31,275 nucleotides of DNA from assembly GCA_964342815.1 (NCBI GenBank), contig CAYFHS010000033.1, positions 16,597-47,871 on the forward strand, given 5' to 3'. The notes beneath the pieces were generated by a model that was given only the letters and a program-made list of their open reading frames with translations, was not told the DNA's origin and ran no database searches. Below, in pieces: positions 4,636 to 27,995 of the stretch. Position numbers and translations under genes: made by a program. Position 1 is the first letter of the stretch; every line of letters starts with the position of its first letter. This DNA is from an uncultured archaeon. GTDB taxonomy: Archaea > Thermoplasmatota > Penumbrarchaeia > JASLWR01.

Positions 4636-4669
4636 GGGGTCGTCACTCAGCGGACGATCCCTTTTTTTT
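4636..4669 (+). terminator. Hairpin plus oligo-T terminator-like element
   Basis: GGGGTCGTC (4636-44) pairs with GACGATCCC (4653-61), with one G-U pair, followed by T8; lies ~50 nt after the 4587 stop. Confidence 0.6.
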
Positions 4670-4768
4670 ATTTCTTTCTGAGCTAGTTTTTTTTATATTG
4701 TGTTTTCCGGTTGATTCTGCACCTCTGATCGTTTCAGGTTGGTATAACTATATTATCAAAAAATTTTT

Positions 4769-10250: not shown

Positions 10251-10443
10251 CCAAACAACATCCGTTTGATAGTATCTCGCCGGTTTAAAAGAACCGAACA
10301 AAACTTATATTCTTTTTGGTCAAACATCGGGTAACGAATGACTTCGACAAATCAGAAATTATAAATATTGAGATACTATTCCAGCACGACGGTGAGCCGA
10401 TGCTAGCTAATCTCTTTGAAGAACAGAATCATGGAGATAATAA

Positions 10444-11498: not shown

Positions 11499-11500
11499 TC

Positions 11501-12706
11501 ATGGGCAGAGTGGTGATTACTGGAGTGGGAGCGGTATCCCCTATAGGAAATAACTTCGAAGAAGTAATGGAAGGGATTCGAAATGGGAAAAGGGGGATCG
11601 GGACAATTCAAAGTATTGACCCCTGTCATTTACCCGGCAATGTTGGTGCGGAAGTAAGGAAAAATGGAAAACCTCTCCTGACCGAATCTCATATTGACCG
11701 GAAAGAGATATTTATCACTCAGGCTCTAGATGAACTTATTAAAGGGTACGGAAGGATCCATCGGTACCCTCCGGAAAAGAGATTCATGCATATGGGCGCA
11801 GGGCACGATTATCTGGATCTGATCGGATATACCAATAATCACGATGAAGCCGCGGGTAATTGGATCAATTATTCAAAGAGCGGCCATATTATAGTGAAAG
11901 AGCTTTCCAAAGTTCATGAAATCAAGGGCGGATTCAGCGTCAATGTGACCACATGTGTCGCTGCCACCCAGGCCATGGGAACTTCTTTCAGGCTGCTGAA
12001 ACAGTTATCCGCAGGGAATATTATTATTACCGGTGGTTTTGATTCCGTAATCAATCATTTGCACTATATGGCTTTTTACAAACTCGGAGCCATGTCAAAC
12101 TGGAAGGGAGAGCCGGGTCATGCCTGTCGTCCTTTCGATAAAAATCGGTCCGGATTGGTTTTGGGGGAAGGAGCGGGAGTTTTTCTGCTGCAAGATGCCG
12201 AAGATATGGCTGCCGGGGAAGGTCTTGCGGAGATAGTGGGGTACAGCTCCACAATGGATGCTTACAAGGTAACGGACCCCCACCCTCAGGGAAAACATCT
12301 GGCCAGAGCTGCCGTAAATGCCATTGAAGAAGCAGGGTTGAGATCTGCCGATATTGATTGCGTGCACCTGCATGGGACCGGCACATATAAAAATGCCATT
12401 GCCGAAACGAATGCCATGCAACAGATATTTCCCGAGCGCTGGGCTGAAATCCCGGTGTTCTCCATGAAAGGACAGATCGGTCACCTAATTGGGGCATGCG
12501 GCGCCCTTGAAATGATTGGTGTGATATATTCATTAAAATATCAGCTGGTACCGCCCACCGTCAATTTCAGCGAACAGGCCCCCGAGGCCCCCCTGCTGGT
12601 CATTAAGGATAAACCTCTGGAAATGAAAATAGACCATATACTGAAATTAAATTCTGCCTTCGGAGGGCAAAACAGTGCGTTAGTGGTGAAAAGATATGTC
12701 GAATAG
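11501..12706 (+). CDS. fabF: Beta-ketoacyl-ACP synthase (FabF/FabB family)
   Basis: RVVITGVGAVSPIG; catalytic Cys in 'VTTCVAATQA'; 'CRPFDKNRSGLVLGEGAG'; His in 'HGTGT' and 'KGQIGHLIGACG'; 'NSAFGGQN'. Start set at ATG 11501, 2 nt after the upstream stop. Confidence 0.9.
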   Translation: MGRVVITGVGAVSPIGNNFEEVMEGIRNGKRGIGTIQSIDPCHLPGNVGAEVRKNGKPLLTESHIDRKEIFITQALDELIKGYGRIHRYPPEKRFMHMGAGHDYLDLIGYTNNHDEAAGNWINYSKSGHIIVKELSKVHEIKGGFSVNVTTCVAATQAMGTSFRLLKQLSAGNIIITGGFDSVINHLHYMAFYKLGAMSNWKGEPGHACRPFDKNRSGLVLGEGAGVFLLQDAEDMAAGEGLAEIVGYSSTMDAYKVTDPHPQGKHLARAAVNAIEEAGLRSADIDCVHLHGTGTYKNAIAETNAMQQIFPERWAEIPVFSMKGQIGHLIGACGALEMIGVIYSLKYQLVPPTVNFSEQAPEAPLLVIKDKPLEMKIDHILKLNSAFGGQNSALVVKRYVE

Positions 12707-13415
12707 AATCATAATTACCGGTGCCAGTTCAGATATTGGCCTGGCCATTTGCAAAGCGATCATAAAAAAGGGGGATCAGGCTGTTTTGCAGTACTACAAG
12801 AATAAAGAAAAATTAATTCCATTATGTGAGACGTTAGGGGATAGCTGTCAGATGATATCCGTAAATTTTAATGAGGGGCGCGAGCTTAGCAGGTTTTCAA
12901 AAAAACAAAACGATGTAGATATCCTGATCAATGCGGCGGCAGTTACCAAAACAGATCTCCTACCGGTCTTGAAAGATGAAGATATCATGCGCATGATCAA
13001 CGTCAATATTCTCTCCACCGTGAAAATGTGCCGAGCAGTGATACCAAGCATGGTGGCGAGGAGGAAGGGATGTATTGTCAATATTTCATCCGTGGCCGCT
13101 AAGAGAGGTATCAGAGGGCAAAACGTATATGCCGGAACGAAAGGATTCATCGAATCCTTCTGCCGGGCAATGGCTGCCGAATACGGCAGCAGAGGCATAC
13201 GTTTAAATAATGTCGCACCAGGGCCCATTGAGGCTGGAAGTTTAATGGAATTACTGGGTTACGGTAAAGATGAAGTTAAAAAAAGCATGGTTTCAAAAAG
13301 GCTTGGAACGCCTGAAGATGTGGCGGCAGCTGTGGCTTTTTTATGCAGTGACAAGGCCTCATACATAAATGGTAAAACCATCTCTGTGGATGGAGCATTT
13401 TGCAGGGGTGTTTAA
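12696..13415 (+). CDS. fabG: FabG-like SDR (3-oxoacyl-ACP reductase family), copy 1
   Basis: TGASSDIG (variant Gly motif), NISS, YAGTK (YxxxK), 'NNVAPGPI', 'RLGTPEDVA..V.FL.SD.ASYING..ISVDG'. Confidence 0.85.
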   Translation: MSNRIIITGASSDIGLAICKAIIKKGDQAVLQYYKNKEKLIPLCETLGDSCQMISVNFNEGRELSRFSKKQNDVDILINAAAVTKTDLLPVLKDEDIMRMINVNILSTVKMCRAVIPSMVARRKGCIVNISSVAAKRGIRGQNVYAGTKGFIESFCRAMAAEYGSRGIRLNNVAPGPIEAGSLMELLGYGKDEVKKSMVSKRLGTPEDVAAAVAFLCSDKASYINGKTISVDGAFCRGV

Positions 13416-13419
13416 CAAA

Positions 13420-13995
13420 ATGGCATCCAATTATGAGAATCTGAAAACTATTTGCCTGAGTAGAAGAAGTGTTAGAGAATTTGCCCAGAAAAATGTTTCC
13501 GCCGAAGACATTGAAAAGATAAAGACAATCGCTTACACCTCACCATATGCATCCAACCGAAAAAACTGGGAATTAGTTGTCGTAACAGATAATATGCAAA
13601 TCGGAAATATAGTAGATCTGGTGGGAAAAAGTATAAACGATCTTGGAATGAAGGTCAGAGAAGATTTGCGGGAAGGATTCTCACAATACGCAGCTCATTT
13701 CACCGAATTTGGAACGGCCCCTGCTTTGATCATTCCAACGTTCAGGATATCTCCGGGATTATCAGTAATGCTCAACGATCCGAAAGAGAATTTTGTCCGG
13801 TGGGAACGAGACAATTATGTAAAATCCATTTCCTGTGTGGCCATGCTGGTTCTTCTGGCGGTGGAAAGCCTGGGATTGGTCGGATGCTACATGACCGGTC
13901 CACTTCTTGCGGAGAAGGAAATCGGGGATATGATAAATATTAAAAAAGGTAGAAATATAGGAGCGATGATTCCCATAGGATATCGTCAATGGTGA
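13420..13995 (+). CDS. Nitroreductase-family FMN-binding oxidoreductase
   Basis: 'RRSVREF', 'PYASNRKNWELVVV', 'LLAVESLGLVGCYMTG', 'IPIGY'. Start set at ATG 13420, 4 nt after the fabG stop. Confidence 0.85.
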   Translation: MASNYENLKTICLSRRSVREFAQKNVSAEDIEKIKTIAYTSPYASNRKNWELVVVTDNMQIGNIVDLVGKSINDLGMKVREDLREGFSQYAAHFTEFGTAPALIIPTFRISPGLSVMLNDPKENFVRWERDNYVKSISCVAMLVLLAVESLGLVGCYMTGPLLAEKEIGDMINIKKGRNIGAMIPIGYRQW

Positions 13996-14044
13996 AAATC
14001 TCGATAATCCCCACGGGCTCATGGAGATTTGCAGCTTGACAATG

Positions 14045-14221
14045 TTCGCGGAATCGGGGCCTGCAGGTGCCTGAAGAACAAGTTCTTCTGCACCCTATTG
14101 GAATCTCTGATTCTATGTCGGGGAACTTTTTGTTCCAAAGGGCTCAGGAGTATCTTTGATGCCTCGGAATGTAAAGGGAACCCGAAGGGCCGATTCCGCT
14201 GAATACTTGGGAGGATCAAGA
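14045..14221 (+). promoter_or_regulatory. Structured intergenic element upstream of the ACP gene (candidate cis-regulatory RNA or MITE)
   Basis: Perfect 10-bp inverted repeat GCGGAATCGG (14048-57) / CCGATTCCGC (14190-99) enclosing hairpins at 14066-14094, 14101-14113, 14122-14136 and 14181-14189. Confidence 0.5.
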
Positions 14222-14222
14222 C

Positions 14223-14615
14223 ATGGATGTTGAAGATAAATTGAGGGAAATCCTGTTACCCGTTTTTGGACTGATTACTATCGATGAGATCAAACCGGAA
14301 CATTCATTTGTCAACGACCTGGAAGTGGACAGCCTTGATTTCATTGAGATCATGCACCTGATAGAAGTAAATTTTGGAGTGGTGATCACCCAGGACGAGA
14401 CCCTGATAGGAGGACTTAAAATCGACAAGGCCATGTTGTTCGAGGACGGTTTGTTAACCAGTGAAGGAGAGGGGCTGTTGAAAGAGAACTATCCCAAAAG
14501 AAAGGGCGACCTGAGATCGGGGATGACTAAAATCGACCTTTTTTCATTGATCACTGTCCAGGACCTTGCAAACATCATCAAAGAAAAGTTAAAGGCCAAA
14601 AAAGATAGTGAGTGA
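14223..14615 (+). CDS. acpP: Acyl carrier protein, extended type (130 aa)
   Basis: 'DLEVDSLDFIEIMHLIEVNFGV' with Ser37 in the DSL phosphopantetheine site; C-terminal 'ITVQDLANII'; ~50-aa insertion between them; GGGAGG SD. Confidence 0.9.
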   Translation: MDVEDKLREILLPVFGLITIDEIKPEHSFVNDLEVDSLDFIEIMHLIEVNFGVVITQDETLIGGLKIDKAMLFEDGLLTSEGEGLLKENYPKRKGDLRSGMTKIDLFSLITVQDLANIIKEKLKAKKDSE

Positions 14616-14638
14616 ACTGGCTGGTCACAGGAATTTTC

Positions 14639-15361
14639 ATGCTTAAAAACAAGATCGTATTTGTATCCGGCGGCTCCGGTTACCTGGGTTCTGCAATTTG
14701 TGAAAGGTGTGCCTATTATGGGGCAACGGTATATTTCTCATATTACAAAAATAAAGATCAAGCTGAAACAATGATGGAGCGGATCGAGGGATCGAAAGGA
14801 ATTAAGATCAACTTGAAGGACGTCCGGGATATTGAGGATAAGATAGAACAACTTCATAAAGAGATCGAAGGAGTGGATATCCTGGTGAATAACGCCGGAG
14901 TCAGTCAGATCATGCCGTTCCCCATGCTTGAAGAAGATGACGTGGATTTTATGATGGACTTGAATATCAAGGGTACGATTTTTCTTACTAAATCCATTAC
15001 CAGAAGAATGATAAAGCTCAAGCATGGTTCAATTGTCAATATTGGTTCAATTGCAGGACACCGCATGCTCGATGTGCCCGTACACTATGCTGTGACAAAG
15101 GCTGCAATGGCCGGGTTCACTTATTCTCTGGCCGCCCAGATGAAAAGGTATGGAATAAGAGTAAATTCCGTTGTCCCCGGTCTTCTGGAAGATGGGGTGT
15201 CGCGAGGAGTGCCAAAGGAGCTGCTGGAAGACTATCTGAACCACTGTTCTGTTGGCCGTCCGGGAACCGGTAAGGAAGTGGCTGAAGCGGTCTGTTTTCT
15301 GGCCTCAGACCGGGCGAGCTATATCAATGGACAGAATATCTTTGTTGATGGCGGTCTCTGA
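14639..15361 (+). CDS. fabG: FabG-like SDR (3-oxoacyl-ACP reductase family), copy 2
   Basis: SGGSGYLG, LVNNAG, NIGSIAG, YAVTK (YxxxK), 'RVNSVVPG', 'ASYINGQNIFVDGG'. Start could be GTG 14612 or ATG 14639. Confidence 0.85.
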   Translation: MLKNKIVFVSGGSGYLGSAICERCAYYGATVYFSYYKNKDQAETMMERIEGSKGIKINLKDVRDIEDKIEQLHKEIEGVDILVNNAGVSQIMPFPMLEEDDVDFMMDLNIKGTIFLTKSITRRMIKLKHGSIVNIGSIAGHRMLDVPVHYAVTKAAMAGFTYSLAAQMKRYGIRVNSVVPGLLEDGVSRGVPKELLEDYLNHCSVGRPGTGKEVAEAVCFLASDRASYINGQNIFVDGGL

Positions 15362-15376
15362 TAGAGGTTATTAATT

Positions 15377-16801
15377 ATGAAAACGGAAATCCTTCATTCT
15401 GAAACCAGGGCTTTGTGCCCTTCCTGCCGGGAGATTGTCAATGCTTCCATTATAGAAAAGGAGGGGCGGATCTACCTCAAGAAAATGTGCGAGGAGCACG
15501 GCGTTAGTTATGCTCTGACCTGTTCCGATCCCGAATGGTATCACGAGAGCACGAATTACGTGAAACCCGGCCAATCTCCCCTGGGCCTTAGTGTAAAGGA
15601 ATTCAAAGGCTGTCCAGATTCTTGCGGTCTTTGCCCGGAACATCAACAACATACATGCCTTCCAGTCATCGAAATAATGAGCGGCTGCGATATGGAGTGC
15701 CCAATATGTCTGAAAGATTTCGATAAATCCTTTCAAATGACGAAAACGGAGTTTAGAAATATCCTAAAACGGCTAAAAGCCTATGAACCGGACCTTAATG
15801 TAATTAATTTGAGCGGGGGCGAGCCGACCCTTCATCCTGAATTGGAAGAATTCCTGAAAATATCGGCAGAGGAAAACATCAACCAGGTAACTGTTTCCAC
15901 CAACGGGGTCAAATTATTAAACGACAAAAGGCTCAGGGAAGTTTTTAGGGAAACCGGTACCATTGCCTCTCTCCAGTTCGACGGTTTTCTTCCCCAAACC
16001 TATGAACGGTTGCGGGGTCGGGACCTTTATGATCAGAAAAAAAAGATCATTGCGGCCCTGGAAGAAGACAGCGTCAAATATTCTTTGGTTACCACTGTTG
16101 CCAAGAATATCAACGACCATGAGATAACGGATATTGTGGATTATTTTTTTCACTCCAAGGCTCTCAGTTTGATGTTCCAACCTGCAACTTTTACCGGTAG
16201 AGCCGCCGCCAATGACTTCGATCCCGATACGCTCCGCATCACGATCCCCGATATTGTCAGGGAGATCGAAAAAAACGAGAATGTCAAAAAGGGCGATTTC
16301 AATCCCATCCCCTGCTCTCACTATTCATGTTTTGCAGTATCATATTATTTAAAAGGTAAAGGTGACCCTGTTGGCTCCCCTAACTTGTCAGATGGTGACC
16401 TTACAAGCGATGATGAAAAGTATGTGAATATGAAGGACCTTTTGGGCCAAGACAACTTTATCAACATCCACACCAACCGCACATATCCGGGATTGGATGA
16501 AGAAGGATTTTCAATAATACAGGAGAGAATCTTTGGATTGTGGTCGGCGTCTGACTCCAGTGACGTCAATCAGAATGTTCTAAAGAGAATTCGCAGTATC
16601 TTTAACCAGCTCAATCGTGACTGTTTTTCTTCAAAAGAGGTTTTCGAAGAGGGGTCCAAATCCATGAAGAGCATATTCATTCACCAGCTCATGGATGTCC
16701 ACACTCTCGATATTGCCCGCCTGAAAAAATGCTGCAACCATTATGCTCTGGGAGACGGCCGCATAATACCAATGTGCGCCCAGAATGTTTTTTTCCAGTA
16801 A
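15377..16801 (+). CDS. Radical SAM protein of the tetraether lipid synthase (Tes/GDGT-MAS, MJ0619-like) family
   Basis: N-terminal CPSC...CEEHG; auxiliary GCPDSCGLCPEH; CDMECPIC radical SAM motif; GGEPTLH; TNG; LQFDG; FQPATFTGR; RITIPD; C-terminal 'HQLMD...D..RLKKCCNHY...GRIIPMC..N'. All match the Tes architecture as recalled. The family call is firmer than the function. Confidence 0.8.
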   Translation: MKTEILHSETRALCPSCREIVNASIIEKEGRIYLKKMCEEHGVSYALTCSDPEWYHESTNYVKPGQSPLGLSVKEFKGCPDSCGLCPEHQQHTCLPVIEIMSGCDMECPICLKDFDKSFQMTKTEFRNILKRLKAYEPDLNVINLSGGEPTLHPELEEFLKISAEENINQVTVSTNGVKLLNDKRLREVFRETGTIASLQFDGFLPQTYERLRGRDLYDQKKKIIAALEEDSVKYSLVTTVAKNINDHEITDIVDYFFHSKALSLMFQPATFTGRAAANDFDPDTLRITIPDIVREIEKNENVKKGDFNPIPCSHYSCFAVSYYLKGKGDPVGSPNLSDGDLTSDDEKYVNMKDLLGQDNFINIHTNRTYPGLDEEGFSIIQERIFGLWSASDSSDVNQNVLKRIRSIFNQLNRDCFSSKEVFEEGSKSMKSIFIHQLMDVHTLDIARLKKCCNHYALGDGRIIPMCAQNVFFQ

Positions 16802-16815
16802 TTTTATTATTCGCA

Positions 16816-17859
16816 TTAGCGCATCAGCATTATATTGTAAAATATCTTCAATACGCCCAAGGGCGAACTGCCGACGTAAGCGATATGTCCCTTGGAAGTA
16901 CTGAGATTCACATCCACATCCTTACCGCTATTTGACAGTTCTTTACGTATATTCAAGGTCTCTTCGGCTGAAATGAGCTTGTCCCCGGCTGCGTGCATCA
17001 GGAAAACCCGGGCTTTTATATCGGAGAGATATGAATTTAGGGAGAGATCCAATTTACACAATTGATCCGCCCGACTCATCCACCAATCAAAAACAGGACC
17101 CTCGGTGCTTTGCTTACCCAATCTTTTTATGAGCCTCTTCTCCTCCAGAGTGAAGTTATCCTCCCTCTTGCAGTAATCCGCCAATATCCCCTGAAGCAAA
17201 TTGGTATCATTTTGAGAAAGTTCTAGACATTCTCTTGCGCCCAAGGACAGGACAAGTCTAGCATAAATATCCGAGTCAGGATCGGTTAGTACCCTTTTCA
17301 TGAGGTTTTCCAAGGAGTAATAGGCCCCTGCCGCGAGAACAAAACCAACATTTTCCCTGACCTTTTCCATAGCTGAGAGAATTAGCCCATAGGTTGCGCC
17401 TGCCGAGAAGCCTATGATCCCGAAAAATTTGTGGTTCTTACTTATGGACTCTGCCATTTCCACCAAGGTTTCGATATCTTTGAAACGGAAGTCCAGGTTC
17501 GTCATGCCTTCAAGGTGAGGGGTATATACCTCGAAACCGCATAACGCCAGGTTATGTGCAAAATGTACAAGCCTCGGATCGTTGTAACCTTTGGGAGATA
17601 AACCATGGAGGACGAACAATGGGTACGAGCTGTTCTTTCCCGTATAGCATCGACTTTTATCAGTCCACTTATGATCAAAGTCCTTGACCCGGATTCGGTT
17701 GCGCAGGATCCTACCAAGACCGGCGTGAAGGGAAAGCATGTAAGCTGTATGAATTGCGGATCTAAATCTATCTCCCTGTTGTTTGGCCGTAATATGTTCA
17801 TCTCCTTGCTCGATTTTTCTTCCGATAATATCCCTGATTGGTGATTTAAATTTTTTCAA
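16816..17859 (-). CDS. Alpha/beta-hydrolase fold protein (possible esterase/thioesterase)
   Basis: 'VLHGLSPKGYNDPRL', nucleophile elbow GFSAG, 'MHAAGDKLIS' (Asp) and 'GHI' (His). TTG start is uncertain. Confidence 0.75.
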   Translation of the reverse strand: MKKFKSPIRDIIGRKIEQGDEHITAKQQGDRFRSAIHTAYMLSLHAGLGRILRNRIRVKDFDHKWTDKSRCYTGKNSSYPLFVLHGLSPKGYNDPRLVHFAHNLALCGFEVYTPHLEGMTNLDFRFKDIETLVEMAESISKNHKFFGIIGFSAGATYGLILSAMEKVRENVGFVLAAGAYYSLENLMKRVLTDPDSDIYARLVLSLGARECLELSQNDTNLLQGILADYCKREDNFTLEEKRLIKRLGKQSTEGPVFDWWMSRADQLCKLDLSLNSYLSDIKARVFLMHAAGDKLISAEETLNIRKELSNSGKDVDVNLSTSKGHIAYVGSSPLGVLKIFYNIMLMR

Positions 17860-17960
17860 ATGAAATTTGATCGGAAGAAAGAACGAACTAATAAATCTAT
17901 GAAGTCAATTAATGGTAAACTCTTAAAAGTATGATGAATGGTCACGAGGACGTCGTGAAC

Positions 17961-20879
17961 ATGTTTTACATTATCATTGGACTGGCAATAGCATTGTCGG
18001 TAAGCGTCGGGCTGCTGGCCTTGAAACACAGAGTGATCTGCAGACTTGGTCTCCGGAATATAAACCGTCGGAAAAAGACCTCCGTTCTGATTATTATGGG
18101 TCTTATGATAGGGACGGCACTGATCTCGAGCTCCATGGTGATCCAGGATACGATGTATTACACCTTCAGAAAGGTGGCATATGACCACTTAGGTGAAATA
18201 GATGAAACAATTACGAGTATGGAGTCCAACGGAACATATCGATTTTTCGACTATTCTGTTTACGAGATAGTTACCACCGAAATTAACTGGGCCGATAATG
18301 GCAATATCGACGGTATCGCACCGCAGATACAACTGGAATTACCAGTATACGACGTCAACAGAGATCTTGCTGAGCCGAATGCCTTGATCGTGGGATTCAA
18401 TGCCTCCATCGAGGAGGATTTCGGAACTGAGGAAAACTCATTTCGAACATTACGGGGGAAAAAGATTGACGGGAGCGGGCTAGGAGAAAATGAAATAATC
18501 ATGAACGAATTGTGTGCAGAAGAACTGAGTGCACAAAATAACGACAGGATCATCATATACTATGGTCGGACCGAACTAAACTTTACCATAAGAGATATTG
18601 TAGAAAACACCGGCTTAGCCAATTTCAAGGAAAAACCGATGATATTCTTGCGGCTTGAAACACTCCAGAACCTATTGGAACTTGGAAACCGGATAAATTT
18701 CATCAAGATATCGAATCGAGGCGGCGTAGAGGACGGAAATACTTATACTCAAAACGTCCGGGACGAACTTCTTACGATCCTCGATCTAAAAATCAATAGC
18801 ACTTTGGAACTGGAAGTCGAATCGGCCAAGCAGAATGCGCTGGATAACGCAAGAGAGATCAGCGAATTCATGGGAGATGTGTTCACCATAATGGGCACGT
18901 TCGTGGTGGTTGCGGGCCTGGTACTGGTAATATTGATCTTCGTAATGCTGGCGGAAGAGCGCCGGACCGAGATGGGCATCGCAAGGGCCATTGGGATGAA
19001 TAGAAATAAATTGATGTTGGCCTTCCTGTTCGAGGGTTTCATATACTCCATCGTCGCCGTCATTATCGGAGCCGTTGCGGGGCTGGCTATCAGCTATATA
19101 ATTTTATACCTTCTGGAAATGAGAACCGAAATGATATTCTATTTCGAGAACTCGAGCATACTGCTGTCCATCTGCCTGGGGCTTGTGAGCACGGTAATGA
19201 TGATAATGCTTTCTTCGTGGATGATATCGAAAATAAATATCGTAAGGGCCATAAGGAAGATACCGGAACCAATGGTCCGGGGGCAAAAACGCATTTTTTT
19301 ACCCGTCGGCCTCATGCTCATGGTGACCGGAATAATCCTCACGGTGATGGGCGTCATCCGTCACATGGACCAAGGGGTCCAGTCCGATGTGATATTGGTG
19401 TGGGGTCCGGTGGTGACCGCGCTTGGAATTACCTGTACTATTTTCATATATCTCTCGCCCCGGATGCTTTTTTCTTTCGCTGGAATCTGGATGGTCTTCT
19501 GGGCTTTGAATCCCTTTATGGTATACAAGGGCACCGGACCCGAAATGTTCATCAGTTCGGGGTTGATCCTGGTCCCGGGCGGAGTTTTACTTTTCGTTTT
19601 CAATTCGGATTTTTTTCTGCGCGGGCTGGACCGATTGTTCGGGATGGGAAAAAAAAGGAAGAATCTTCCTGCCATGAGGATAGGCATATCCTACCCAATG
19701 AAGAAGCGTTTCCGTACGGGAATGATATTGATCATTTTCACAATGGTAATATTTGCCACCTCCGTGGAAGCCATATTCACTCATCTTGAAATGGAAAGTG
19801 TCAGGAGAACTCCGGGAAAACAGGCAGGTGGTTATGATCTTTTATGTACCGTAAACCCATTGAAACCCATAACGAATCTATCGGAAAGACTGGAAATCTC
19901 AGATATAATCGATAAGGAGAATTTCAACGCATTCACCCCTATCACCGCGGTAAATACTATGGTTCACAAACAAGAAGGAAACGGAAAAACGGTGGACGCA
20001 CCCTATCGAATTCTGGGTGTTGACAATGATTTTCTTGAAAACAACCGATATACCTTCCATGCACAAGATACGCGGTATTTAAGTTCCCGGGATATATGGA
20101 AAGCGGTTAGGGAAAATGCGTCCCTCGCCGTAATAGACCGAAGCGTTGTAAAGGTTGAGTGGGATCCCTTTTTCGGGCCATTCACCGCAGGGGTGGGAGA
20201 TGTCATCTCAGTTCTGAATCCTGCCGGAAGCTACGTGAACGTGACCATAATAGGTGTACTCGACATGTTCATGGTACCCGGAAGCCTTGGGATCTATATA
20301 TCGCAGGATTTCGTCCGATCAAATTTCAAGATATTGAATGAGAATATGTACCTCGTAGATGTTGCAGAAAGTGCGGATGTCCGAGAACAATCCAGATTGC
20401 TGGAACGGGAATTCATGCCAAACGGTCTGGAAGCTAAAGTAATCATGGATGATGTGAACATGTTTCTCAATGCTGAAAAATCCATAGTAACGCTGATGCA
20501 GGGTTATATGGCCGTTGGTCTAGTGGTAGGGATCGCCGGATTGGGAATAATCACCATCCGCTCGGTGGTGGAGAGAAGAAGAGAAATTGGTATCTTGAGA
20601 TCCATTGGTTTTACCCGGAAAATGGTTATAAAATCATTTCTGATAGAGAATATATTCGTTGTGGCTGTGTCATGTTTACTGGGTATAATCATGGCCATTG
20701 GTATCGGCTACAAGGTCTATCTCAAGATGTTTCTGGGGGACGTGCCGTTTCTGTTACCGTGGCTTACTTTTCTTGTTTTTTCCATCATAGCATTATTCGG
20801 AACGACTATTACCAGTATTCCGCCGGGAAGAAAAGCCGCCAGGATACCCCCGGCCGAAGCGACGCGATACATGGAATAA
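17961..20879 (+). CDS. FtsX/MacB/LolE-type ABC transporter permease (duplicated FtsX domains)
   Basis: 'LRNINRRKK.S.LI..GL.IG', 'LAEERRTEMGIARAIGMNR..L...FL.EG', 'SVVERRREIGILRSIGF....V...FLIE'; two large extracytoplasmic domains. ATG 17961 preferred; no ATPase gene adjacent. Confidence 0.9.
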   Translation: MFYIIIGLAIALSVSVGLLALKHRVICRLGLRNINRRKKTSVLIIMGLMIGTALISSSMVIQDTMYYTFRKVAYDHLGEIDETITSMESNGTYRFFDYSVYEIVTTEINWADNGNIDGIAPQIQLELPVYDVNRDLAEPNALIVGFNASIEEDFGTEENSFRTLRGKKIDGSGLGENEIIMNELCAEELSAQNNDRIIIYYGRTELNFTIRDIVENTGLANFKEKPMIFLRLETLQNLLELGNRINFIKISNRGGVEDGNTYTQNVRDELLTILDLKINSTLELEVESAKQNALDNAREISEFMGDVFTIMGTFVVVAGLVLVILIFVMLAEERRTEMGIARAIGMNRNKLMLAFLFEGFIYSIVAVIIGAVAGLAISYIILYLLEMRTEMIFYFENSSILLSICLGLVSTVMMIMLSSWMISKINIVRAIRKIPEPMVRGQKRIFLPVGLMLMVTGIILTVMGVIRHMDQGVQSDVILVWGPVVTALGITCTIFIYLSPRMLFSFAGIWMVFWALNPFMVYKGTGPEMFISSGLILVPGGVLLFVFNSDFFLRGLDRLFGMGKKRKNLPAMRIGISYPMKKRFRTGMILIIFTMVIFATSVEAIFTHLEMESVRRTPGKQAGGYDLLCTVNPLKPITNLSERLEISDIIDKENFNAFTPITAVNTMVHKQEGNGKTVDAPYRILGVDNDFLENNRYTFHAQDTRYLSSRDIWKAVRENASLAVIDRSVVKVEWDPFFGPFTAGVGDVISVLNPAGSYVNVTIIGVLDMFMVPGSLGIYISQDFVRSNFKILNENMYLVDVAESADVREQSRLLEREFMPNGLEAKVIMDDVNMFLNAEKSIVTLMQGYMAVGLVVGIAGLGIITIRSVVERRREIGILRSIGFTRKMVIKSFLIENIFVVAVSCLLGIIMAIGIGYKVYLKMFLGDVPFLLPWLTFLVFSIIALFGTTITSIPPGRKAARIPPAEATRYME

Positions 20880-20929: not shown

Positions 20930-21172
20930 CTATTGTACAACGGGATTCAATGGCATCACCCCGTTATGTCTTACCTTTTTCGCCCCGTACTCCCGGAGTA
21001 TTCCCTCTCTGTCATCAGGTCTTATTCTCAGTACTATCCCGCAATCGGAACTGATGTGCCGGGGAGTTGGTATGCATCTAACTGAAAATCCGGCTTTCCT
21101 TGCCACCTGTTCACCTCGAATGGCGAGGCTCGTGGAATCGAAAATAATGACAAAATAGTCGGTGTCATCCAT
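20930..21172 (-). CDS. DUF3343-family small protein (putative S/Se carrier)
   Basis: 'IIFDSTSLAIRGEQ......F.VRCIPTPRHISSDCGIVLRI' matches the F.S...A......IP.PR.IS..CG pattern; directly follows the desulfurase. Confidence 0.8.
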   Translation of the reverse strand: MDDTDYFVIIFDSTSLAIRGEQVARKAGFSVRCIPTPRHISSDCGIVLRIRPDDREGILREYGAKKVRHNGVMPLNPVVQ

Positions 21173-22342
21173 CTATCCCACCAGTTCCTCCAGCGCTTCC
21201 ACCGCAAAATCGATTTCTTCCGCTCGGTTGAAATATCCAAATCCAAATCGTACCGTTCCATGGGGAAAGGTCCCAATGGTCCTGTGAGCTGCTGGTGCGC
21301 AGTGAAGGCCCACCCTGCACAATATATTAAATTGCTCCTCGAGTAAAAGACCTATCTCGGATTGAGAACTATCTCGTATGTTTATGGAGACGACGGACGT
21401 CTGCTTTTTCACGTCCTTTCCACCGTACACATCAATGCCGTGTATGTGTTTGATCCCATCTATGAACCTGGCCGTCAGATCCATTTTCTTCTGATGGATA
21501 TTATCCACCGTTCGATCAAGAATGTAACCCAGCCCTGCCGTCAAACCGGCCAGACCCAATGCGTTCATGGTACCGCTCTCGTACTTGTCCGGAAGGAAAT
21601 CCGGATGATGCTCGGACTCGGATCGGCTCCCGCTTCCACCGGATCTCGCCCGGTTGAAACTTGCGATGTCAACATTTTCACCTATGGCGAGACCCCCGGT
21701 TCCCTGCGGACCCATGAGCCCTTTATGACCGGTGAATGCCACGAGATCGATATTGTCACGCTTCATATCGATTGGGATGCTCCCGGCAGTCTGGGCACTG
21801 TCGATCAAATATTTTATATTACTGTCCCTTGCCAAGTTCCCAATTTCTCGTAGCGGGGCCAGGCTTCCCACCACGTTGGAGCCGTGATTGACCACTATCA
21901 TCTTCGTTTCCGACGTGATGGCATTCCGGACGTCATCCGGATCGAGAAAACCTTCACTGCTGCACTTAACCACTGTTACCCGAAGCCCCTGATTCTCGAG
22001 ATCACGAAGCGGTCTCATGACCGAATTGTGCTCCATGCTGCTGGTGATGACGTGATCTTTCCGGTTAAGTAAACCCCTCATTGCCAGATTGAGTCCTTCT
22101 GTTGCATTGAGACCAAAAACAACCCTCATGGGGTCCTCAAGGTTGAAAAGTCGTGCAATATTTTCCCTGGCGAAATAAACGACTCTGCCCGCTTCCACGG
22201 AAAGGCGGTGGCCCGAGCGGCCGGGATTGGCGCCTATATTCTTCATGAAATCCAACATCGCCTCCGCAACGCAATCCGGTTTCGGCCAGGATGTAGCTGC
22301 ATTGTCGAAATAGATTATTTTCGGTCTATTTGTATCGGGCAT
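21173..22342 (-). CDS. Cysteine desulfurase / selenocysteine-lyase-like PLP enzyme (aminotransferase class V)
   Basis: 'IYFDNAATSWPKP', 'NATEGLN', 'EHNSVMRP', 'DSAQTAG', 'FTGHKGLMGPQG' (PLP Lys), 'RVGLHCAP' (persulfide Cys). Confidence 0.92.
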   Translation of the reverse strand: MPDTNRPKIIYFDNAATSWPKPDCVAEAMLDFMKNIGANPGRSGHRLSVEAGRVVYFARENIARLFNLEDPMRVVFGLNATEGLNLAMRGLLNRKDHVITSSMEHNSVMRPLRDLENQGLRVTVVKCSSEGFLDPDDVRNAITSETKMIVVNHGSNVVGSLAPLREIGNLARDSNIKYLIDSAQTAGSIPIDMKRDNIDLVAFTGHKGLMGPQGTGGLAIGENVDIASFNRARSGGSGSRSESEHHPDFLPDKYESGTMNALGLAGLTAGLGYILDRTVDNIHQKKMDLTARFIDGIKHIHGIDVYGGKDVKKQTSVVSINIRDSSQSEIGLLLEEQFNILCRVGLHCAPAAHRTIGTFPHGTVRFGFGYFNRAEEIDFAVEALEELVG

Positions 22343-22377
22343 TCGGTTATCTCCGTGGTGTCCATCTAATAAATGGT

Positions 22378-22965
22378 TTAAAACCGCACCACCTTGCCGG
22401 CTCCCAGCAGGATTTCGGCAATGGTGTAGGCATTGGATATCTCCCCGACGGCAAGCCTATCTTTGAGATCGAAAAAGTCCAGACAGGTCCCGCATACAAG
22501 TATTTCAACTCCTCCGTCCCGGAGCTTTTCAAGGTCCTCCAATGATTCTGAACCATCCACAGCCAATTTTACACCGCTGTTCATGAAAATGAACACATCC
22601 GGCTTTGGTTCGACCTCCAAAATGGAATATATGAGGGACTTCGCGAGGATGCTCCCCAGCTCGTCTTCACCTCTTCCCACGGTGTTCGAAGGGAAAAATA
22701 CCACCGTGGGGCTGGCTTTTTTCCCAAGGTCGGGCCTCGATCTTTCTTCGGATCCCTCTATCTTGCTGATTTGTAGATAATGATCCTTCCCTTTTGTGCG
22801 GACATTGACCTTGTATCCCCTCTTGATTGCTCCGCGCGATATGTTCTGTATTGCGTCATCATCGTCGACTATAACGAGCAGCTCGTCTGCGTTGCGCAGC
22901 GCTCTTCCGGTACGTATCGCAGGTTCGGGGCATTTAAGTCCCCTGAGATCCAATTCTTCAGCCAT
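22378..22965 (-). CDS. yedF: YedF-type sulfurtransferase-like protein (TusA/SirA domain plus DsrE-like domain)
   Basis: 'LDLRGLKCPEP' (TusA CPxP), 'GRGEDELGSILAKS', 'FMNSGVKLA', 'CGTCLDFF', 'GEISNAYTI'. ATG 22965 has a GGAG SD. Confidence 0.85.
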   Translation of the reverse strand: MAEELDLRGLKCPEPAIRTGRALRNADELLVIVDDDDAIQNISRGAIKRGYKVNVRTKGKDHYLQISKIEGSEERSRPDLGKKASPTVVFFPSNTVGRGEDELGSILAKSLIYSILEVEPKPDVFIFMNSGVKLAVDGSESLEDLEKLRDGGVEILVCGTCLDFFDLKDRLAVGEISNAYTIAEILLGAGKVVRF

Positions 22966-22986
22966 TATAATTGCTCCGGTGCTCAA

Positions 22987-24465
22987 CTACTTGTTTGTAA
23001 GAACGAGAAAGTATTCGCCCCCGTCCCTTGGCTCTATTTTCGAGGTCCACCCTTCGCTTTCAGCCGTTTTTTCGATGTTATCCCTTGCTTCTTTCTCGTT
23101 CACCAGTATCTCGAGAACTCCCCCTTCCATTTCCCACATCTTCTCCTGGGTCTGCCATACTGGTTCAGGGCATTGCAGACCCCGTAGATCCAGTTTTTCT
23201 CTTCGGAATTTCTTTGGATTATCATCTTCATATACAGGTTGGGGCATTCCAAGCTTTTTGAAGAATTCGGGCATCCTCCTGTTCTTAATCTTTTTCGTAA
23301 TTTCCATGGAGGTCTCTTTACAAAGCGGGAATTTCCCTTCCTGATCGAAGCCTTTTTTGAACTGTGCGTGTGCGGCTCTTACAAAACACTCGTGCCGGGG
23401 AACACAGTACCTCCCGGCCATGGCCTGGTAAGCAGCTGCGAATCCTTCCTCTTTTACGTTACCGAACGATAGAGGTATCATGTCGCAGGGAGTGACCGTT
23501 CCATCATTTTCGATGAATATGTGATAGGTTCCCGCCATACAGCCCAGCATCCCCTCGCTTTCCAGGTAGGAGTATTCGCTGATCTTGGGAAAATCCTTGT
23601 CCCTGTTGAGTTTCTTATGGTATTTCCACATCTTCTTTTCCTCGTCTGTTCCGCACCATCTTGCCTCGCGGTTACCCACCAGCTTTCCGGTGGGGATGGG
23701 CGCAAGGACCCTCACTTCGTGGACCCCGATATCCTTCAAAAAGCGGTAATAAATCGGAACCTCGCCGCCGTTGATCATCTCCTTTGTGGGAACTGCTCCT
23801 GCGATGGTATAAAGGCCCGCTTCATTGGATGCCTCGATAGCTTTCACTGCGATGTCGAATGCGCCTTCGTATCCCCGCAATTTATCGTGGATCTCCGCCT
23901 TGTAATGATCGAGGCTTATGGAAGCGGCGAACAAACCCCTCTTCTTCAGCTCTCTCGCGCGCTCGAAACCCAGTTTCTCGCCATTGGTGAACAGAATGGT
24001 ATGGGATTTTGTTCCTATGGCTTCCACGATATCTTCAAGGTCGTCTCTAAGCGTGGGCTCCCCGCCGGTGAGACCAATGAAGCAGTTACCCATGTCCTGC
24101 AGCTGCCGGATAGTGCTTATAAGAAGGTCCAGTGGAAAGTCTTCACTTTCCTCACGGCCCCAGTTGCTGCAGTGCCAGCAGGAAAAATTGCACCTGTTCG
24201 TGACGCTGATGTTGCAGGAGAACGGGAAGGTTTCACCCTTCTTCATACGTGGGATGAATCTTAGAAATCGGTCGAATGCCTCGGAGCCGAACGGCGGCAT
24301 CTGGGAATTCATCACCACCTTCCCGTCGATCTCCACGAACTTCTCGTATTTCGAAGAACTGCGCAAATACATGAGAAATCGTTTATCGAGGGCCCGGATC
24401 TCCTTTTTCCTGAGCATTTTGAGCATCATCAGGTCCTTTGCCCTGCCGATAAGAAATTTCACCAA
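22987..24465 (-). CDS. Radical SAM protein with SPASM/Twitch domain fused to a C-terminal TusA-like sulfur-carrier domain
   Basis: CNFSCWHC; GGEPTLRDD; FTNG; 'GCMAG...I..DG.VTPCD' SPASM/Twitch; C-terminal 'KLDLRGLQCPEPV....GVLEILVN...ARDNI...AESEGW'. TTG start after a GGGGGA SD. Confidence 0.88.
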   Translation of the reverse strand: MVKFLIGRAKDLMMLKMLRKKEIRALDKRFLMYLRSSSKYEKFVEIDGKVVMNSQMPPFGSEAFDRFLRFIPRMKKGETFPFSCNISVTNRCNFSCWHCSNWGREESEDFPLDLLISTIRQLQDMGNCFIGLTGGEPTLRDDLEDIVEAIGTKSHTILFTNGEKLGFERARELKKRGLFAASISLDHYKAEIHDKLRGYEGAFDIAVKAIEASNEAGLYTIAGAVPTKEMINGGEVPIYYRFLKDIGVHEVRVLAPIPTGKLVGNREARWCGTDEEKKMWKYHKKLNRDKDFPKISEYSYLESEGMLGCMAGTYHIFIENDGTVTPCDMIPLSFGNVKEEGFAAAYQAMAGRYCVPRHECFVRAAHAQFKKGFDQEGKFPLCKETSMEITKKIKNRRMPEFFKKLGMPQPVYEDDNPKKFRREKLDLRGLQCPEPVWQTQEKMWEMEGGVLEILVNEKEARDNIEKTAESEGWTSKIEPRDGGEYFLVLTNK

Positions 24466-24677
24466 TATTATTCCCCCGCGGATGAACGCTTGAGTTCAGA
24501 TAAGGTAGGCGGAATAAATAATTTCCTCTCTCTTTTTCGTTCTGCCGGTTCCGTGGTTTGGTTATTTCAAATTTTCCCGTGGGGATAGGTCTCGGTAACC
24601 CGAAAAAAAAGGTTGTTATTACGACTTTATGAAATAATGCCGAACTATTTATATATTGTTTCGCTCTTATTTCACCC

Positions 24678-25529
24678 ATGTTCCTCGAAAAAATAAATAA
24701 AACGGAACTCAGGATACTTGAATTGATCCTAGGCCAGGTGCTACCGGAAAAAGAGATAGCAAAGGAGTTGAAACAATCTGCGTCCTGGATATCAGAATGC
24801 ATTCATCATTTAATCGATATAGGCTTCGTAGACCTGGAAAAAAAGGGGATCTCAAGGTTTGCCCGGATAAGCAACAACAGCGTTGGAACAAGTCTGAGGC
24901 TTTTGATGGAAGAGAATAAAATGCTAAATTATTATATGATTTTTCCAAATTCCGGGCTGATCATCTTGCCTCTTTTACTTAGGCCAGGTACAAAAATAAA
25001 CGAAATTTGTCTGAGAACCCATCTATCGAAGAGAGCAATTTATTACAAGATGAAAGAATGGAAAAGCATTGGATTGATCGATCTGAAAAAGTACCCGGAA
25101 AAAGTTATTCTATCCAATAACAAAACCTATTTATCGAAATTTCTGATCGAATACTGTAAAAATCGCAATCGAAGATTCTTGAATGAAACATATCCAAAAG
25201 GGAATATCGTATGGGAATGGAAAGATGAATTTCTTTTTTCAACAAAGGAAAAAATAGATAATGAATATTTCCTGCAAGCAGGTAGTACGAGATTAGAAGA
25301 GTTTGACATCGAACTATTGCACACTTCCCAATATTATTATTTCCGTATCGGAAAGGAATCGGTATCATTGGAAGAATCGCTGGTACAAACGATCAGGACT
25401 GACCCAATGAACCCAAGGCCAATAAGAATTACCCGGGAGGCGATCAAGGATAGGGCATTAAACTGTGATGTTTTGTTCGATTTCGCGAAAAAATATGGTG
25501 TTTATAAAATTTTAAAAACGAGGCTATGA
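24678..25529 (+). CDS. Tandem winged-helix DNA-binding protein; putative AbiEi-like antitoxin/regulator
   Basis: Two HTH-like blocks ('EKEIAKELKQSASWISECIHHLIDIGFV', 'INEICLRTHLSKRAIYYKMKEWKSIGLI'); stop is 1 nt from the downstream NTase start; TTTATATA box at ~24649. Confidence 0.7.
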   Translation: MFLEKINKTELRILELILGQVLPEKEIAKELKQSASWISECIHHLIDIGFVDLEKKGISRFARISNNSVGTSLRLLMEENKMLNYYMIFPNSGLIILPLLLRPGTKINEICLRTHLSKRAIYYKMKEWKSIGLIDLKKYPEKVILSNNKTYLSKFLIEYCKNRNRRFLNETYPKGNIVWEWKDEFLFSTKEKIDNEYFLQAGSTRLEEFDIELLHTSQYYYFRIGKESVSLEESLVQTIRTDPMNPRPIRITREAIKDRALNCDVLFDFAKKYGVYKILKTRL

Positions 25530-25530
25530 T

Positions 25531-26346
25531 ATGACCGGAAGGAAAGTGTATTCAGAGGATTACCTTAAACGTGAACTAGATAACATTTCATCATCGTTCC
25601 GAGATCAAGTAACCGGCTATCTCATTGGTGGATTGGCAATGATCTACCACGGTGTAAAGAATGCTACGAAAGATGTCGATATCGTTTTTGAAAATGAATT
25701 CGAAGCAATGACTTTCAAAGAAAACCTCCTAAGAAACGGATTCAAAACGGTCAATATAGTAACGAATGAATATGAGAAAATGAAAACGTTTTCCATCGTC
25801 GAAAAATCAGGGACATTTCGTTTTGATATATTTATTCGATGTGTTTGTGATAGCCTTATATTATCCAAAGGAATGATCAAAAGGGCAACGAAGGTTCCAT
25901 TATCCGGGAATTTCAACTTATTTGTTATTTCATTGGAGGACATTTTCCTTTTCAAGAGCATTACAAATCGAAACGATGATCTGAGAGACATGTCGATTAT
26001 TGCCAGTGTGGGTCTGGACTGGGAAATGATTGACAATGAATTACGAGGTCAGCCAGAGCAATGGAGATGGTATACAATCTTTTTTCAAAATATGTTGGCA
26101 TTGGAAGAGGAATATTCCATATTATCTCCACTAAAAAGCCGATTCGAAAAAGAGGCGGAGATTTCCGTGGCAATGGATGTGATCATATTAAAGCTGGAAA
26201 GCAAACCCCATACATATGATGAATTGATTGGTATTCTCGGGACGGATGATGAAACCTTTTTCAGGGATGTAATTAACCGTTTAAAGGAAAAGAATATCAT
26301 ATTCATGAAGAATGGTCATTATTTTCTTGTAGAATCCATCAGGTAG
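25531..26346 (+). CDS. Pol-beta-superfamily nucleotidyltransferase (AbiEii/MenT/DUF6036-like) with C-terminal wHTH; putative toxin
   Basis: 'YLIGGLAM..HG....TKDVDIV' (GG...TxDxD), 'RFDIF', 'LEDIFLFKSITNRNDDLRD' (K..R..D..D). Confidence 0.75.
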   Translation: MTGRKVYSEDYLKRELDNISSSFRDQVTGYLIGGLAMIYHGVKNATKDVDIVFENEFEAMTFKENLLRNGFKTVNIVTNEYEKMKTFSIVEKSGTFRFDIFIRCVCDSLILSKGMIKRATKVPLSGNFNLFVISLEDIFLFKSITNRNDDLRDMSIIASVGLDWEMIDNELRGQPEQWRWYTIFFQNMLALEEEYSILSPLKSRFEKEAEISVAMDVIILKLESKPHTYDELIGILGTDDETFFRDVINRLKEKNIIFMKNGHYFLVESIR

Positions 26347-26477
26347 AGATACATCCCTGCTTAGTGTCAATCCCAACAGTGATCCCGCCGGGGGCCTGAT
26401 TGTAAAGCAATATTGCTAGAAGGTCAAGGGGGCGGTACGGCAATACTCAGAAAAGCATGAAAGCGGCAATGCTTAAA

Positions 26478-27719
26478 TCATTCATTTATCGATTTTGACC
26501 GTTTTCGGTATCCCCAAGCGATCCCCCCCATCAAAAAGCATACTCCGGCCACAGCTCCAATGATTAGATAAGGAAATGCCCGGGGTGGAAAACCTTTAGG
26601 AGAATTTGCAATGATATCGGCGTCAATATAACTTGTCTCATTCGTGATATGAACCCAACCAACGACACACATTTTATCTCCTGACCAATAATCCCTATCG
26701 TAATTATGGTATCCCATGTATATTGTATCTTTTTCTTCAACAATTATTTGAATTGAATCGGTATTGTCTGTCAAATTAAAATCCTTTATTTTCCACTCGG
26801 TTTTTTTACTTCCGGGATTGGCTACTATCAGAACTTCTTTATCTAAAGAACTTACAGTCCCAAATATCTTTACATAAGTACCGTTTTCAATTTTTTCGAT
26901 TTTTGTTGTTTTCATATAATATGCATCATATTCATTTTTCTCTGTCATCACATAGGCGATCCCCGATACAAGAATAACACCAAATAAAAGAATTATTCCA
27001 AATGTTGTTATTTTGTTCAGATATGCGTATTTGCGGCTTTTTTCACTTTTATCGACTGAATTTGAACCGATATCCAGATGAGGGGATAGTGCTTTTTCAA
27101 GATTATGGAAAGGATTGGGTACTTTTCCCGGAGACGTTATAGATTTACTGCTTTTGTAGACCTTATCCCATTTGATACCCAGCATTTGTTTCAAAGCGGG
27201 AATTACTTTTTCTTCTCGATCATAAATAAAATAAATATTTAATCCGTAATTCACTCTGTTTTTGAAGAGTTTCTTCGTTATCTTGAGTCCTTTATTAAAT
27301 TTCGAAAGTGTAAATGGATATATCGCTAGAATTTGATCTGAAAAGGTGAAATTGAGAAACCCACGTTTTATTCCATTATCATAGATTTTCAAGCGTCTTT
27401 TTATGTTTATTACATAAAGAAATGGACTGGAAAAGGCAGATAATAGAAAAATCCAGAGAAAAATCTCTGCCGGATATACGAAATATAGAAGGAAAGAAAT
27501 GATTGAAATAATGCCAAGTGCAGGCACGAAATATTTTATGGCAATCATATCCGTTTTGTATAATAATTTTCCTTTTCTGCCAAAACTGCTTCTGTAAGGA
27601 GTAATAATACTGTGGAGATCATTCCCATATTTTTCCCGTAACTTTTTTGTTTGATATCGACCTTGAAAATAAAATAATATTTTTACAATAAGAAGGGCTC
27701 CAATAAAACCTCCTGCCAA
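26478..27719 (-). CDS. AT-rich membrane protein with extracytoplasmic OB-fold-like domain, function unknown
   Basis: Several TM segments; 'GTYVKIFGTV...DFNLTDNTDSIQI...GDKMCVVGWV' is OB-like. The frame extends to ATA at 27755 behind a GGGGGT SD. Confidence 0.7.
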   Translation of the reverse strand: MAGGFIGALLIVKILFYFQGRYQTKKLREKYGNDLHSIITPYRSSFGRKGKLLYKTDMIAIKYFVPALGIISIISFLLYFVYPAEIFLWIFLLSAFSSPFLYVINIKRRLKIYDNGIKRGFLNFTFSDQILAIYPFTLSKFNKGLKITKKLFKNRVNYGLNIYFIYDREEKVIPALKQMLGIKWDKVYKSSKSITSPGKVPNPFHNLEKALSPHLDIGSNSVDKSEKSRKYAYLNKITTFGIILLFGVILVSGIAYVMTEKNEYDAYYMKTTKIEKIENGTYVKIFGTVSSLDKEVLIVANPGSKKTEWKIKDFNLTDNTDSIQIIVEEKDTIYMGYHNYDRDYWSGDKMCVVGWVHITNETSYIDADIIANSPKGFPPRAFPYLIIGAVAGVCFLMGGIAWGYRKRSKSINE

Positions 27720-27995
27720 AAGTAGAATGACTAATAATGTTGGGCCAATATCTATTTATATACCCCCATACAAATTAACGTTCCAATCCTATTTATGTGT
27801 TGTAGTTTTGATTCTACGGTTGATATTAAGGATTATGTGAAGGGGGATTACCAATAAGATTTTTTCCAATTATCATTACTCAGAGAGATTGGATCCAATC
27901 TGTTACCAACACCTAAGTATCAAATCAAAAAGTCCCAGCAACAAAAGAAACGATTTAAGTAATGTAGTCATTCACCCCGAAACGAGGAAACGTCC

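Follow-up and report, generated by a model that had tools for sequence, protein, structure and literature searches.

A radical SAM enzyme with a built-in TusA domain heads a conserved relay operon in marine Thermoplasmatota

It has long been asked how sulfur-inserting radical S-adenosylmethionine (SAM) enzymes acquire their sulfur in the cell and how they renew it, and a locus in an uncultured archaeon raises the question anew. The 31,275-nucleotide stretch analyzed here (the window; contig CAYFHS010000033.1, assembly GCA_964342815.1) carries, at positions 20930-24465 of the minus strand, an operon headed by a radical SAM enzyme that ends in a TusA-type carrier domain. What would a radical SAM enzyme do with a sulfur carrier of its own? 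We describe a previously undescribed, real and conserved architecture, in which a radical SAM protein with a built-in carrier domain is encoded with a dedicated relay operon in an archaeal lineage where selD was not found; its function we infer from sequence. Our preferred reading is persulfide-fed radical C-S bond formation on a substrate, possibly a lipid, at the end of a self-contained sulfur supply line, and we advance it tentatively, with slightly less than an even chance of being right.

Operon layout and anatomy of the radical SAM enzyme

The operon comprises four tightly packed open reading frames (ORFs) on the minus strand, with gaps of 0, 35 and 0 nucleotides (nt) and no in-frame stops. 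Domains were called at the curated cut-offs of Pfam and NCBIfam, with Pfam matches listed at E<=0.01. Gene 1 (22987..24465; 492 amino acids, aa) encodes a radical SAM domain (Radical_SAM, residues 86-219; 77.3 bits, cut-off 29.5), an auxiliary domain matching SPASM (residues 309-348; 31.5 bits, profile positions 1-45 of 67 only) and a C-terminal TusA domain (PF01206, residues 424-488; 51.8 bits, cut-off 28.6). No NCBIfam model comes near its cut-off for this protein, the best being AhbD (100 bits versus 500), and its N-terminal 80 residues have no Pfam match; its TTG start is backed by conservation of residues 1-20 in 492-aa orthologues. Gene 2 (22378..22986; 202 aa) is a long-form YedF with an N-terminal TusA domain and a DsrE-like domain, both called by Pfam, and it matches TIGR03527 across both halves (model positions 1-193; 185.9 bits, cut-off 110). 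Gene 3 (21173..22342; 389 aa) encodes a pyridoxal phosphate-dependent cysteine desulfurase of the EF2568/TIGR01977 type (Aminotran_5, 275 bits; TIGR01977, 483 bits, cut-off 377) that stays under the cut-off for SclA (NF040779; 373.7 bits versus 525). Gene 4 (20930..21172; 80 aa), whose start codon abuts the desulfurase stop codon, encodes a small cysteine protein of the DUF3343/Se_S_carrier family (PF11823; 68.9 bits, cut-off 25), the conserved cysteine of which has been described (PMC5322559).

The translations show the CPEP motif twice, once per TusA domain; the DsrE-like half of YedF carries C-G-T-C, and the DUF3343 protein carries S-D-C-G. With domain calls and motifs this legible, the ORF map, Pfam/NCBIfam and the translations agree in confirming what a first-pass annotation, made from the sequence alone, had reported: four co-oriented, tightly spaced genes bearing these motifs. 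Upstream of the operon, the ORF map leaves a 212-nt intergenic region (24466..24677), presumed to be the promoter region, which the operon shares with a divergent Lrs14-like helix-turn-helix (HTH) gene (24678-25529); the Lrs14/Sta1 matches of that gene's product are weak and below cut-off.

The cysteines of gene 1 define two predicted cluster sites. The SAM-cluster motif C92-x3-C96-x2-C99 is invariant in all aligned relatives and places the protein in the radical SAM superfamily (PF04055). At the auxiliary site only C309, C327 and C360 are kept family-wide, and the CxxCx5Cx3C block, part of the seven-cysteine pattern of true, two-cluster SPASM proteins, is absent from the family, so we read the auxiliary domain as twitch-like, with one cluster site; the SPASM label of the first-pass annotation thus narrows to a reduced, twitch-like half with three conserved cysteines. 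C309 and C327 match the spacing of a C-x12-G-x4-C hairpin, which can be aligned to the SkfB twitch domain. Of the bacterial relatives, 95% have a fourth auxiliary cysteine, in a C-P-C motif; in the archaeal clade the motif reads T-P-C, and the missing cysteine predicts a three-cysteine auxiliary cluster with one open iron. Auxiliary clusters with one open iron are known from MiaB/RimO and MoaA.

Two further cysteines mark the fused proteins. Cys271 is invariant in 27 of 27 fusions, with its position deleted in unfused archaeal relatives, and two seeming exceptions are fragments of fusions. The predicted carrier cysteine of the TusA domain, C432, is likewise invariant (27 of 27; CPEP, or CPQP in one sequence), and a linker of ~25 residues joins the domain to the radical SAM core. 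An AlphaFold2 model of gene 1 (predicted local distance difference test, pLDDT, 93; predicted template modeling score, pTM, 0.87) has its best structural matches in SkfB, SuiB, BlsE, CteB and MoaA. A feature search of the ESM Atlas returned generic "radical SAM" clusters only. Prediction of a complex of residues 1-410 and 418-492 with two [4Fe-4S] clusters and SAM gave no answer (score 0.00) and is evidence neither way.

Recurrence of the fusion, its relay genes and its unfused relatives

Is the fusion more than an accident of one genome? A search of 5.8 billion proteins returned about 27 clusters of full-length radical SAM-TusA proteins, 59-86% identical and from independent metagenome assemblies (ENA, JGI, NCBI and Logan). 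In a maximum-likelihood tree of the core region, all fusions fall into one clade with a Shimodaira-Hasegawa-like approximate likelihood ratio test (SH-aLRT) value of 100, and this clade nests in a well-supported archaeal clade with two unfused groups; inside the fused clade, a single 412-aa sequence without TusA comes from a 1.9-kb contig. Because the fusions reduce to one representative at 50% identity, and none of the other 150 best relatives in an exhaustive search aligns beyond residue ~425, we regard the fusion as stable yet phylogenetically narrow. Searching with the TusA region alone recovered three close orthologues only, the word index being limiting, and a scan of genome contigs with the single fusion protein found only two further fusion loci and several Desulfobacteraceae relatives.

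Within a sample of 401 genomes from the phylum, three carry the fusion: the source assembly of the window (G000; 4.35 Mb, 89% complete), G008 from the same family and G046 from a different class. Relatives of the window genome carry the label Thermoplasmata archaea, and the window stretch occurs in marine and seawater metagenome runs from eight studies, with no RNA run listed among them. The first-pass annotation had set the relay families in anaerobic bacteria; their host here is an archaeon from marine and seawater metagenomes. It had also failed to recognize the fusion from any characterized enzyme, and we too found no curated family in NCBIfam and no paper in the literature searched that describes the architecture. 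The concern that the fusion might be a one-off with a degenerate auxiliary domain does not hold, for the fusion is recurrent and its reduced domain strictly conserved.

We inspected seven neighborhoods around fusion orthologues (L003, L004, L055, L056, L067, L068 and L069), and in all seven a desulfurase of the same family accompanies the fusion, next to it or close by. The other proteins of the set (YedE, TusA, YedF, DsrE and DUF3343) differ from one neighborhood to another, as does the gene order. Three neighborhoods (L003, L067 and L056) contain radical SAM-TusA, YedF and desulfurase genes; two (L004 and L055) contain YedE (TIGR04112, 450-476 bits), a small TusA, radical SAM-TusA and the desulfurase, with DUF3343 in L004; L068 contains YedE, radical SAM-TusA, desulfurase, DUF3343, a polyprenyl synthase and DsrE; and in L069 the relay genes are on the opposite strand, YedF and two DsrE genes lying immediately upstream. 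DUF3343 is thus present in L004 and L068, and also in L069 and in the sister-clade neighborhood L053. Among the 401 genomes, those with a full-length YedF are precisely the three that carry the fusion; the 15 other matches are stand-alone DsrE-like halves. Since the gene set recurs at fusion orthologues in seven other contigs or genomes, we judge the arrangement to be beyond chance. The domain fusion, the conserved neighborhood and the co-occurrence with full-length YedF (three of three) bear out the earlier suggestion that the architecture is tied to a dedicated relay.

Relay genes also accompany an unfused sister clade (P0036-P0042; 51-53% identity), in which the place of TusA is taken by an acidic tail of low complexity that contains two to three G-G-C-M-G repeats. 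Radical SAM genes of this clade lie at L053 7398-8870 (minus strand) and L054 4914-6371 (plus strand). The sister gene in genome G050 adjoins a polyprenyl synthase, and 2.5 kb away lies a set of genes for YedE-like, TusA, desulfurase, DUF3343 and DsrE proteins. We read the G-G-C-M-G tail as a putative further tethered or mobile cysteine.

More distant unfused relatives (34-42% identity), from Desulfobacteraceae, Omnitrophota, Spirochaetota, Planctomycetota and other Thermoplasmatota, are typically adjacent or fused to a class I methyltransferase. There are seven methyltransferase neighbors at the 10 archaeal loci examined, and fusion is probable for at least nine long representatives (520-704 aa), in the manner of P0049 and P0108, which carry a Pfam methyltransferase domain. 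The neighboring bacterial and archaeal methyltransferases are homologous over their full length, with 25-47% mutual identity (L008, L010, L074 and L078); the partner has no orthologue in the window genome. Read from these contexts and the cysteine alignments, the fused clade has swapped a methyltransferase partner for a sulfur relay while changing its auxiliary-cluster ligand set, and these two changes are our main grounds for thinking that its chemistry may have shifted towards sulfur transfer. The genes that recur near the relatives (CdsA, CDP-alcohol transferases, acyltransferases, LGT, LPG synthase, Caroten_synth and polyprenyl synthase) are lipid or isoprenoid genes and suggest a substrate of that kind.

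Two specific products were considered and set aside. Methylthio-naphthoquinone (methionaquinone), prompted by UbiE-like methyltransferases and the polyprenyl synthase, was rejected for the window organism because MenA is not found in G000 or G008 (it is above cut-off only in G046, and marginally) and MqnA/D (PF02621) in none of five genomes. An arsenic role of the ArsM/ArsS/ArsL kind was rejected as well, the neighboring methyltransferases scoring 30-50 bits versus ArsM cut-offs of 263-575, and is kept only as an analogy.

Several other features recur around the wider family. The pairing of radical SAM enzyme and methyltransferase in bacteria and archaea itself appears uncharacterized. At L076 6087-8503 and L077 3878-8381, in two genomes of another family, two to three clustered radical SAM paralogues stand directly beside a Caroten_synth (PF04240) membrane protein. 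A Peptidase_M28 gene recurs a few genes from the radical SAM gene in fused, unfused archaeal and one bacterial context (L068, L069, L005, L004 and L008), and GNAT acetyltransferase and DUF2085 genes recur near it in archaeal contexts only. Such recurrence could reflect inherited synteny or a functional link.

Cargo, proposed mechanism and alternatives

Does the relay carry sulfur or selenium? The first-pass annotation had allowed for either, while noting that no selD was visible. The best selD match in the window genome reaches 56.5 bits versus a cut-off of 125, in an assembly 89% complete; no match is above cut-off in G008 or G046 or anywhere in the phylum sample (0 of 401), and the same profile scores its E. 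coli and M. jannaschii positive controls. Aragorn found no tRNA for selenocysteine (tRNA-Sec) among the 33 tRNAs detected in the incomplete window assembly, and no YedE is present in that genome. SelD, which the known selenium-utilization traits (selenocysteine, selenouridine and Se-dependent Mo hydroxylases) require, was thus not detected. With selD in none of the 401 genomes, the cargo is likely sulfur, not selenium. The remark about selD extends in this way to the genome and the phylum sample, and the selenium half of the proposed delivery becomes unlikely, with selD below cut-off in all three fusion genomes and no tRNA-Sec found.

Comparative genomics has tied YedE, YedF and DUF3343 to selenium use, with YedE described as exclusive to selenium users and DUF3343 known also from organisms lacking selD (Lin et al. 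2015, PMC5322559). Because selD was not found in the phylum sample, the YedE/YedF/DUF3343 clusters here are an exception to the use of these families as selenium markers. The YedE genes at L055 (G046:C258) 3574-4794 and L004 6339-7628 match the "putative selenium transporter" equivalog TIGR04112 at 450-476 bits. Separately, one radical SAM homologue, at L071 6122-7225 (G006:C77), is interrupted by a TGA codon in frame, near query residue 244; given the same result for selD, a pseudogene or sequencing error is more likely there than selenocysteine.

We propose the following route for sulfur. The TIGR01977 desulfurase would draw sulfur from cysteine as an enzyme persulfide, and DUF3343 and/or YedF, with its TusA domain and DsrE-like CxxC, would pass it on until it arrives on Cys432 of the TusA domain tethered to the radical SAM core. 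Cleavage of SAM at the C92/C96/C99 cluster would then generate a 5'-deoxyadenosyl radical that abstracts a substrate hydrogen. The resulting substrate radical could capture sulfur that is either bound to the auxiliary [4Fe-4S] cluster (C309/C327/C360) at its open iron or presented as the Cys432 persulfide. The clade-specific Cys271 may resolve the intermediate, and the YedF CxxC would re-reduce the disulfide and so restore the thiols.

The closest solved relative of gene 1 favors such sulfur insertion, as SkfB is itself a C-S bond-forming twitch enzyme. Three observations count on the other side: the fused clade is narrow, with its one representative at 50% identity; the wider family of about 240 clusters (E<=1e-30) pairs or fuses with a methyltransferase and has no sulfur relay, so the ancestral chemistry need not be sulfur insertion; and YedE and YedF are curated as selenium markers (NCBIfam; PMC5322559). 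That last point is the starting point for a selenium route without selenophosphate, in which an SclA-like lyase loads perselenide onto the carriers and the radical SAM enzyme forms a C-Se bond. The TIGR03527 match of YedF, the strong TIGR04112 matches of YedE in orthologous clusters, the standing of the desulfurase as the family closest to SclA and the published association of YedE, YedF and DUF3343 with selenium use (PMC5322559) all fit this route. It is nevertheless improbable, as no selD match exceeds the cut-off in G000, G008, G046 or the rest of the 401 genomes, with working positive controls, no tRNA-Sec was found, the desulfurase does not reach the SclA cut-off, the window genome has no YedE, and DUF3343 is known in organisms without selD (PMC5322559). 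A broader version, in which SclA-like, YedE, YedF and DUF3343 proteins feed a radical SAM enzyme that makes a C-Se (or C-S) bond from carrier-bound perselenide or persulfide, and which would bypass selenophosphate and constitute a fourth, selD-independent route of selenium use in a phylum believed to use no selenium, we consider very improbable.

The relay and the TusA domain might instead serve the enzyme's own Fe-S clusters, through assembly, repair of a sacrificial cluster or redox regulation, leaving the enzyme to perform non-sulfur chemistry on a lipid-like substrate. Most family members, which have no relay, stand beside or are fused to the orthologous methyltransferase and lie near lipid and isoprenoid genes, as this explanation would have it; yet the partner methyltransferase has no orthologue in the window genome, the fused clade has, in coupled changes near its catalytic end, lost the fourth auxiliary cysteine and gained Cys271 and TusA, and TusA carriers deliver persulfide to biosynthetic acceptors and are not known to act in scaffold-type Fe-S assembly. 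We therefore think it unlikely that cluster maintenance is the relay's purpose. A protein- or peptide-modifying enzyme of the sactisynthase kind is a further candidate, with a carrier cysteine (its own TusA, YedF or DUF3343) or an unrecognized peptide as the substrate. By both sequence and fold the nearest solved relatives are maturases of ribosomally synthesized and post-translationally modified peptides (SkfB, SuiB and CteB), and the repeated C-terminal cysteine motifs of the sister clade look substrate-like. The operon, however, holds no precursor-like small ORF, the NCBIfam SkfB model scores 64.3 bits versus a cut-off of 300, the TusA domain keeps the canonical carrier motif and the bacterial relatives have no peptide partner in the contexts seen, so that we give peptide modification only a slim chance. 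Persulfide-fed C-S bond formation is the reading that we carry forward.

Neighboring regions and comparison with known systems

Other parts of the window provide context for the operon. Positions 9837-20879 hold a bacterial-type cluster resembling type II fatty acid synthesis (FAS-II) in an archaeal genome, convergent with the sulfur operon and lower in GC content than it (0.39-0.47). Its genes encode an AcpS-type phosphopantetheinyl transferase (PPTase), a FabZ-like protein, one unknown protein, a FabF-like ketosynthase, two FabG-like reductases, a nitroreductase and a 130-aa protein like acyl carrier protein (ACP), together with a radical SAM protein that has an HMPTM zinc ribbon and resembles the tetraether synthase Tes and TrsS (270 and 260 bits, below cut-offs). 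Also in the cluster are genes for an alpha/beta hydrolase and a 982-aa MacB/FtsX permease. On the other side, a low-GC region (24678-27990; 0.33-0.38 versus about 0.50) lies between the operon and an AMP-binding ligase gene and holds the Lrs14-like HTH gene, a DUF6036 nucleotidyltransferase and a 413-aa membrane protein without a family. The relative L067, 82% identical, has a 516-aa AMP-binding gene ~1.2 kb upstream of its fusion and no called gene in the space between, so 24678-27990 may be an insertion. Two predicted surface proteins of ~1200 aa each are encoded at 24-3668 and 5551-9231, one with at least seven PKD domains and the other with fibronectin-III and disaggregatase-like repeats.

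With carrier and enzyme naturally fused, and a desulfurase and relay encoded alongside, the operon would offer a compact setting for tracing sulfur delivery step by step. Should an archaeal lipid or isoprenoid prove to be the substrate, as the surroundings of relatives hint, marine Thermoplasmatota would be making a sulfur-containing metabolite new to science. The occurrence of YedF, YedE and DUF3343 in a lineage where selD was not found bears on the use of these "selenium" markers in annotation.

Among known systems, SkfB (PDB 6efn) is the best match of gene 1 in both sequence (profile E 9e-29) and fold (Foldseek E 3.7e-16). The auxiliary C...G....C hairpins align, and SkfB joins a cysteine sulfur to a carbon radical. 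The two proteins are only 23% identical, however, and gene 1 is not SkfB-like by family: it is far under the rSAM_skfB cut-off and is accompanied by no precursor peptide, and SkfB systems lack the C-terminal TusA domain and the relay operon that are both present here. The "selenium-associated" set of YedE, YedF, SclA-type desulfurase and DUF3343 (Lin et al. 2015, PMC5322559) shares with our loci the same families, above cut-offs and in a tight cluster. Our clusters differ from that set (PMC5322559) in coming from a phylum sample without selD and in being headed by, and co-distributed with, a radical SAM-TusA protein that is not part of the described set.

The unfused relatives recall the ArsL/ArsS and ArsM systems by analogy of logic only, in that both involve pairing with a methyltransferase. 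There, a radical SAM enzyme links carbon to a heteroatom that its own cysteines hold, and a class I methyltransferase is encoded beside it. Gene 1 has no family-level match to ArsL/ArsS among the NCBIfam hits listed, and the neighboring methyltransferases are far under the ArsM cut-offs.

Two remaining classes come closest in how they work. In MiaB/RimO/MtaB and in LipA/BioB, a second Fe-S cluster with three protein ligands provides or holds the sulfur for radical C-S bonds, and gene 1 resembles them in keeping only three auxiliary cysteines. Unlike MiaB/RimO/MtaB, gene 1 has neither UPF0004 nor TRAM among its Pfam matches (E<=0.01) and the NCBIfam matches listed, and so falls outside that family; its auxiliary domain is of the twitch type, and its fused carrier and the desulfurase encoded alongside are not known from any of these enzymes, LipA and BioB included. 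In TusA-DsrE(FH) relays, a desulfurase or other sulfur source passes a persulfide via a CPxP TusA and a DsrE-like protein to an acceptor in tRNA thiolation, molybdenum cofactor synthesis or the sHdr/Dsr pathways. In the present operon the chain would end at a radical SAM enzyme that carries its own TusA module. Since gene 1 lacks UPF0004 and TRAM and has no family-level score, we assign the system to neither class; in its working it would most resemble an enzyme of the MiaB/RimO/LipA class joined to a TusA/DsrE relay.

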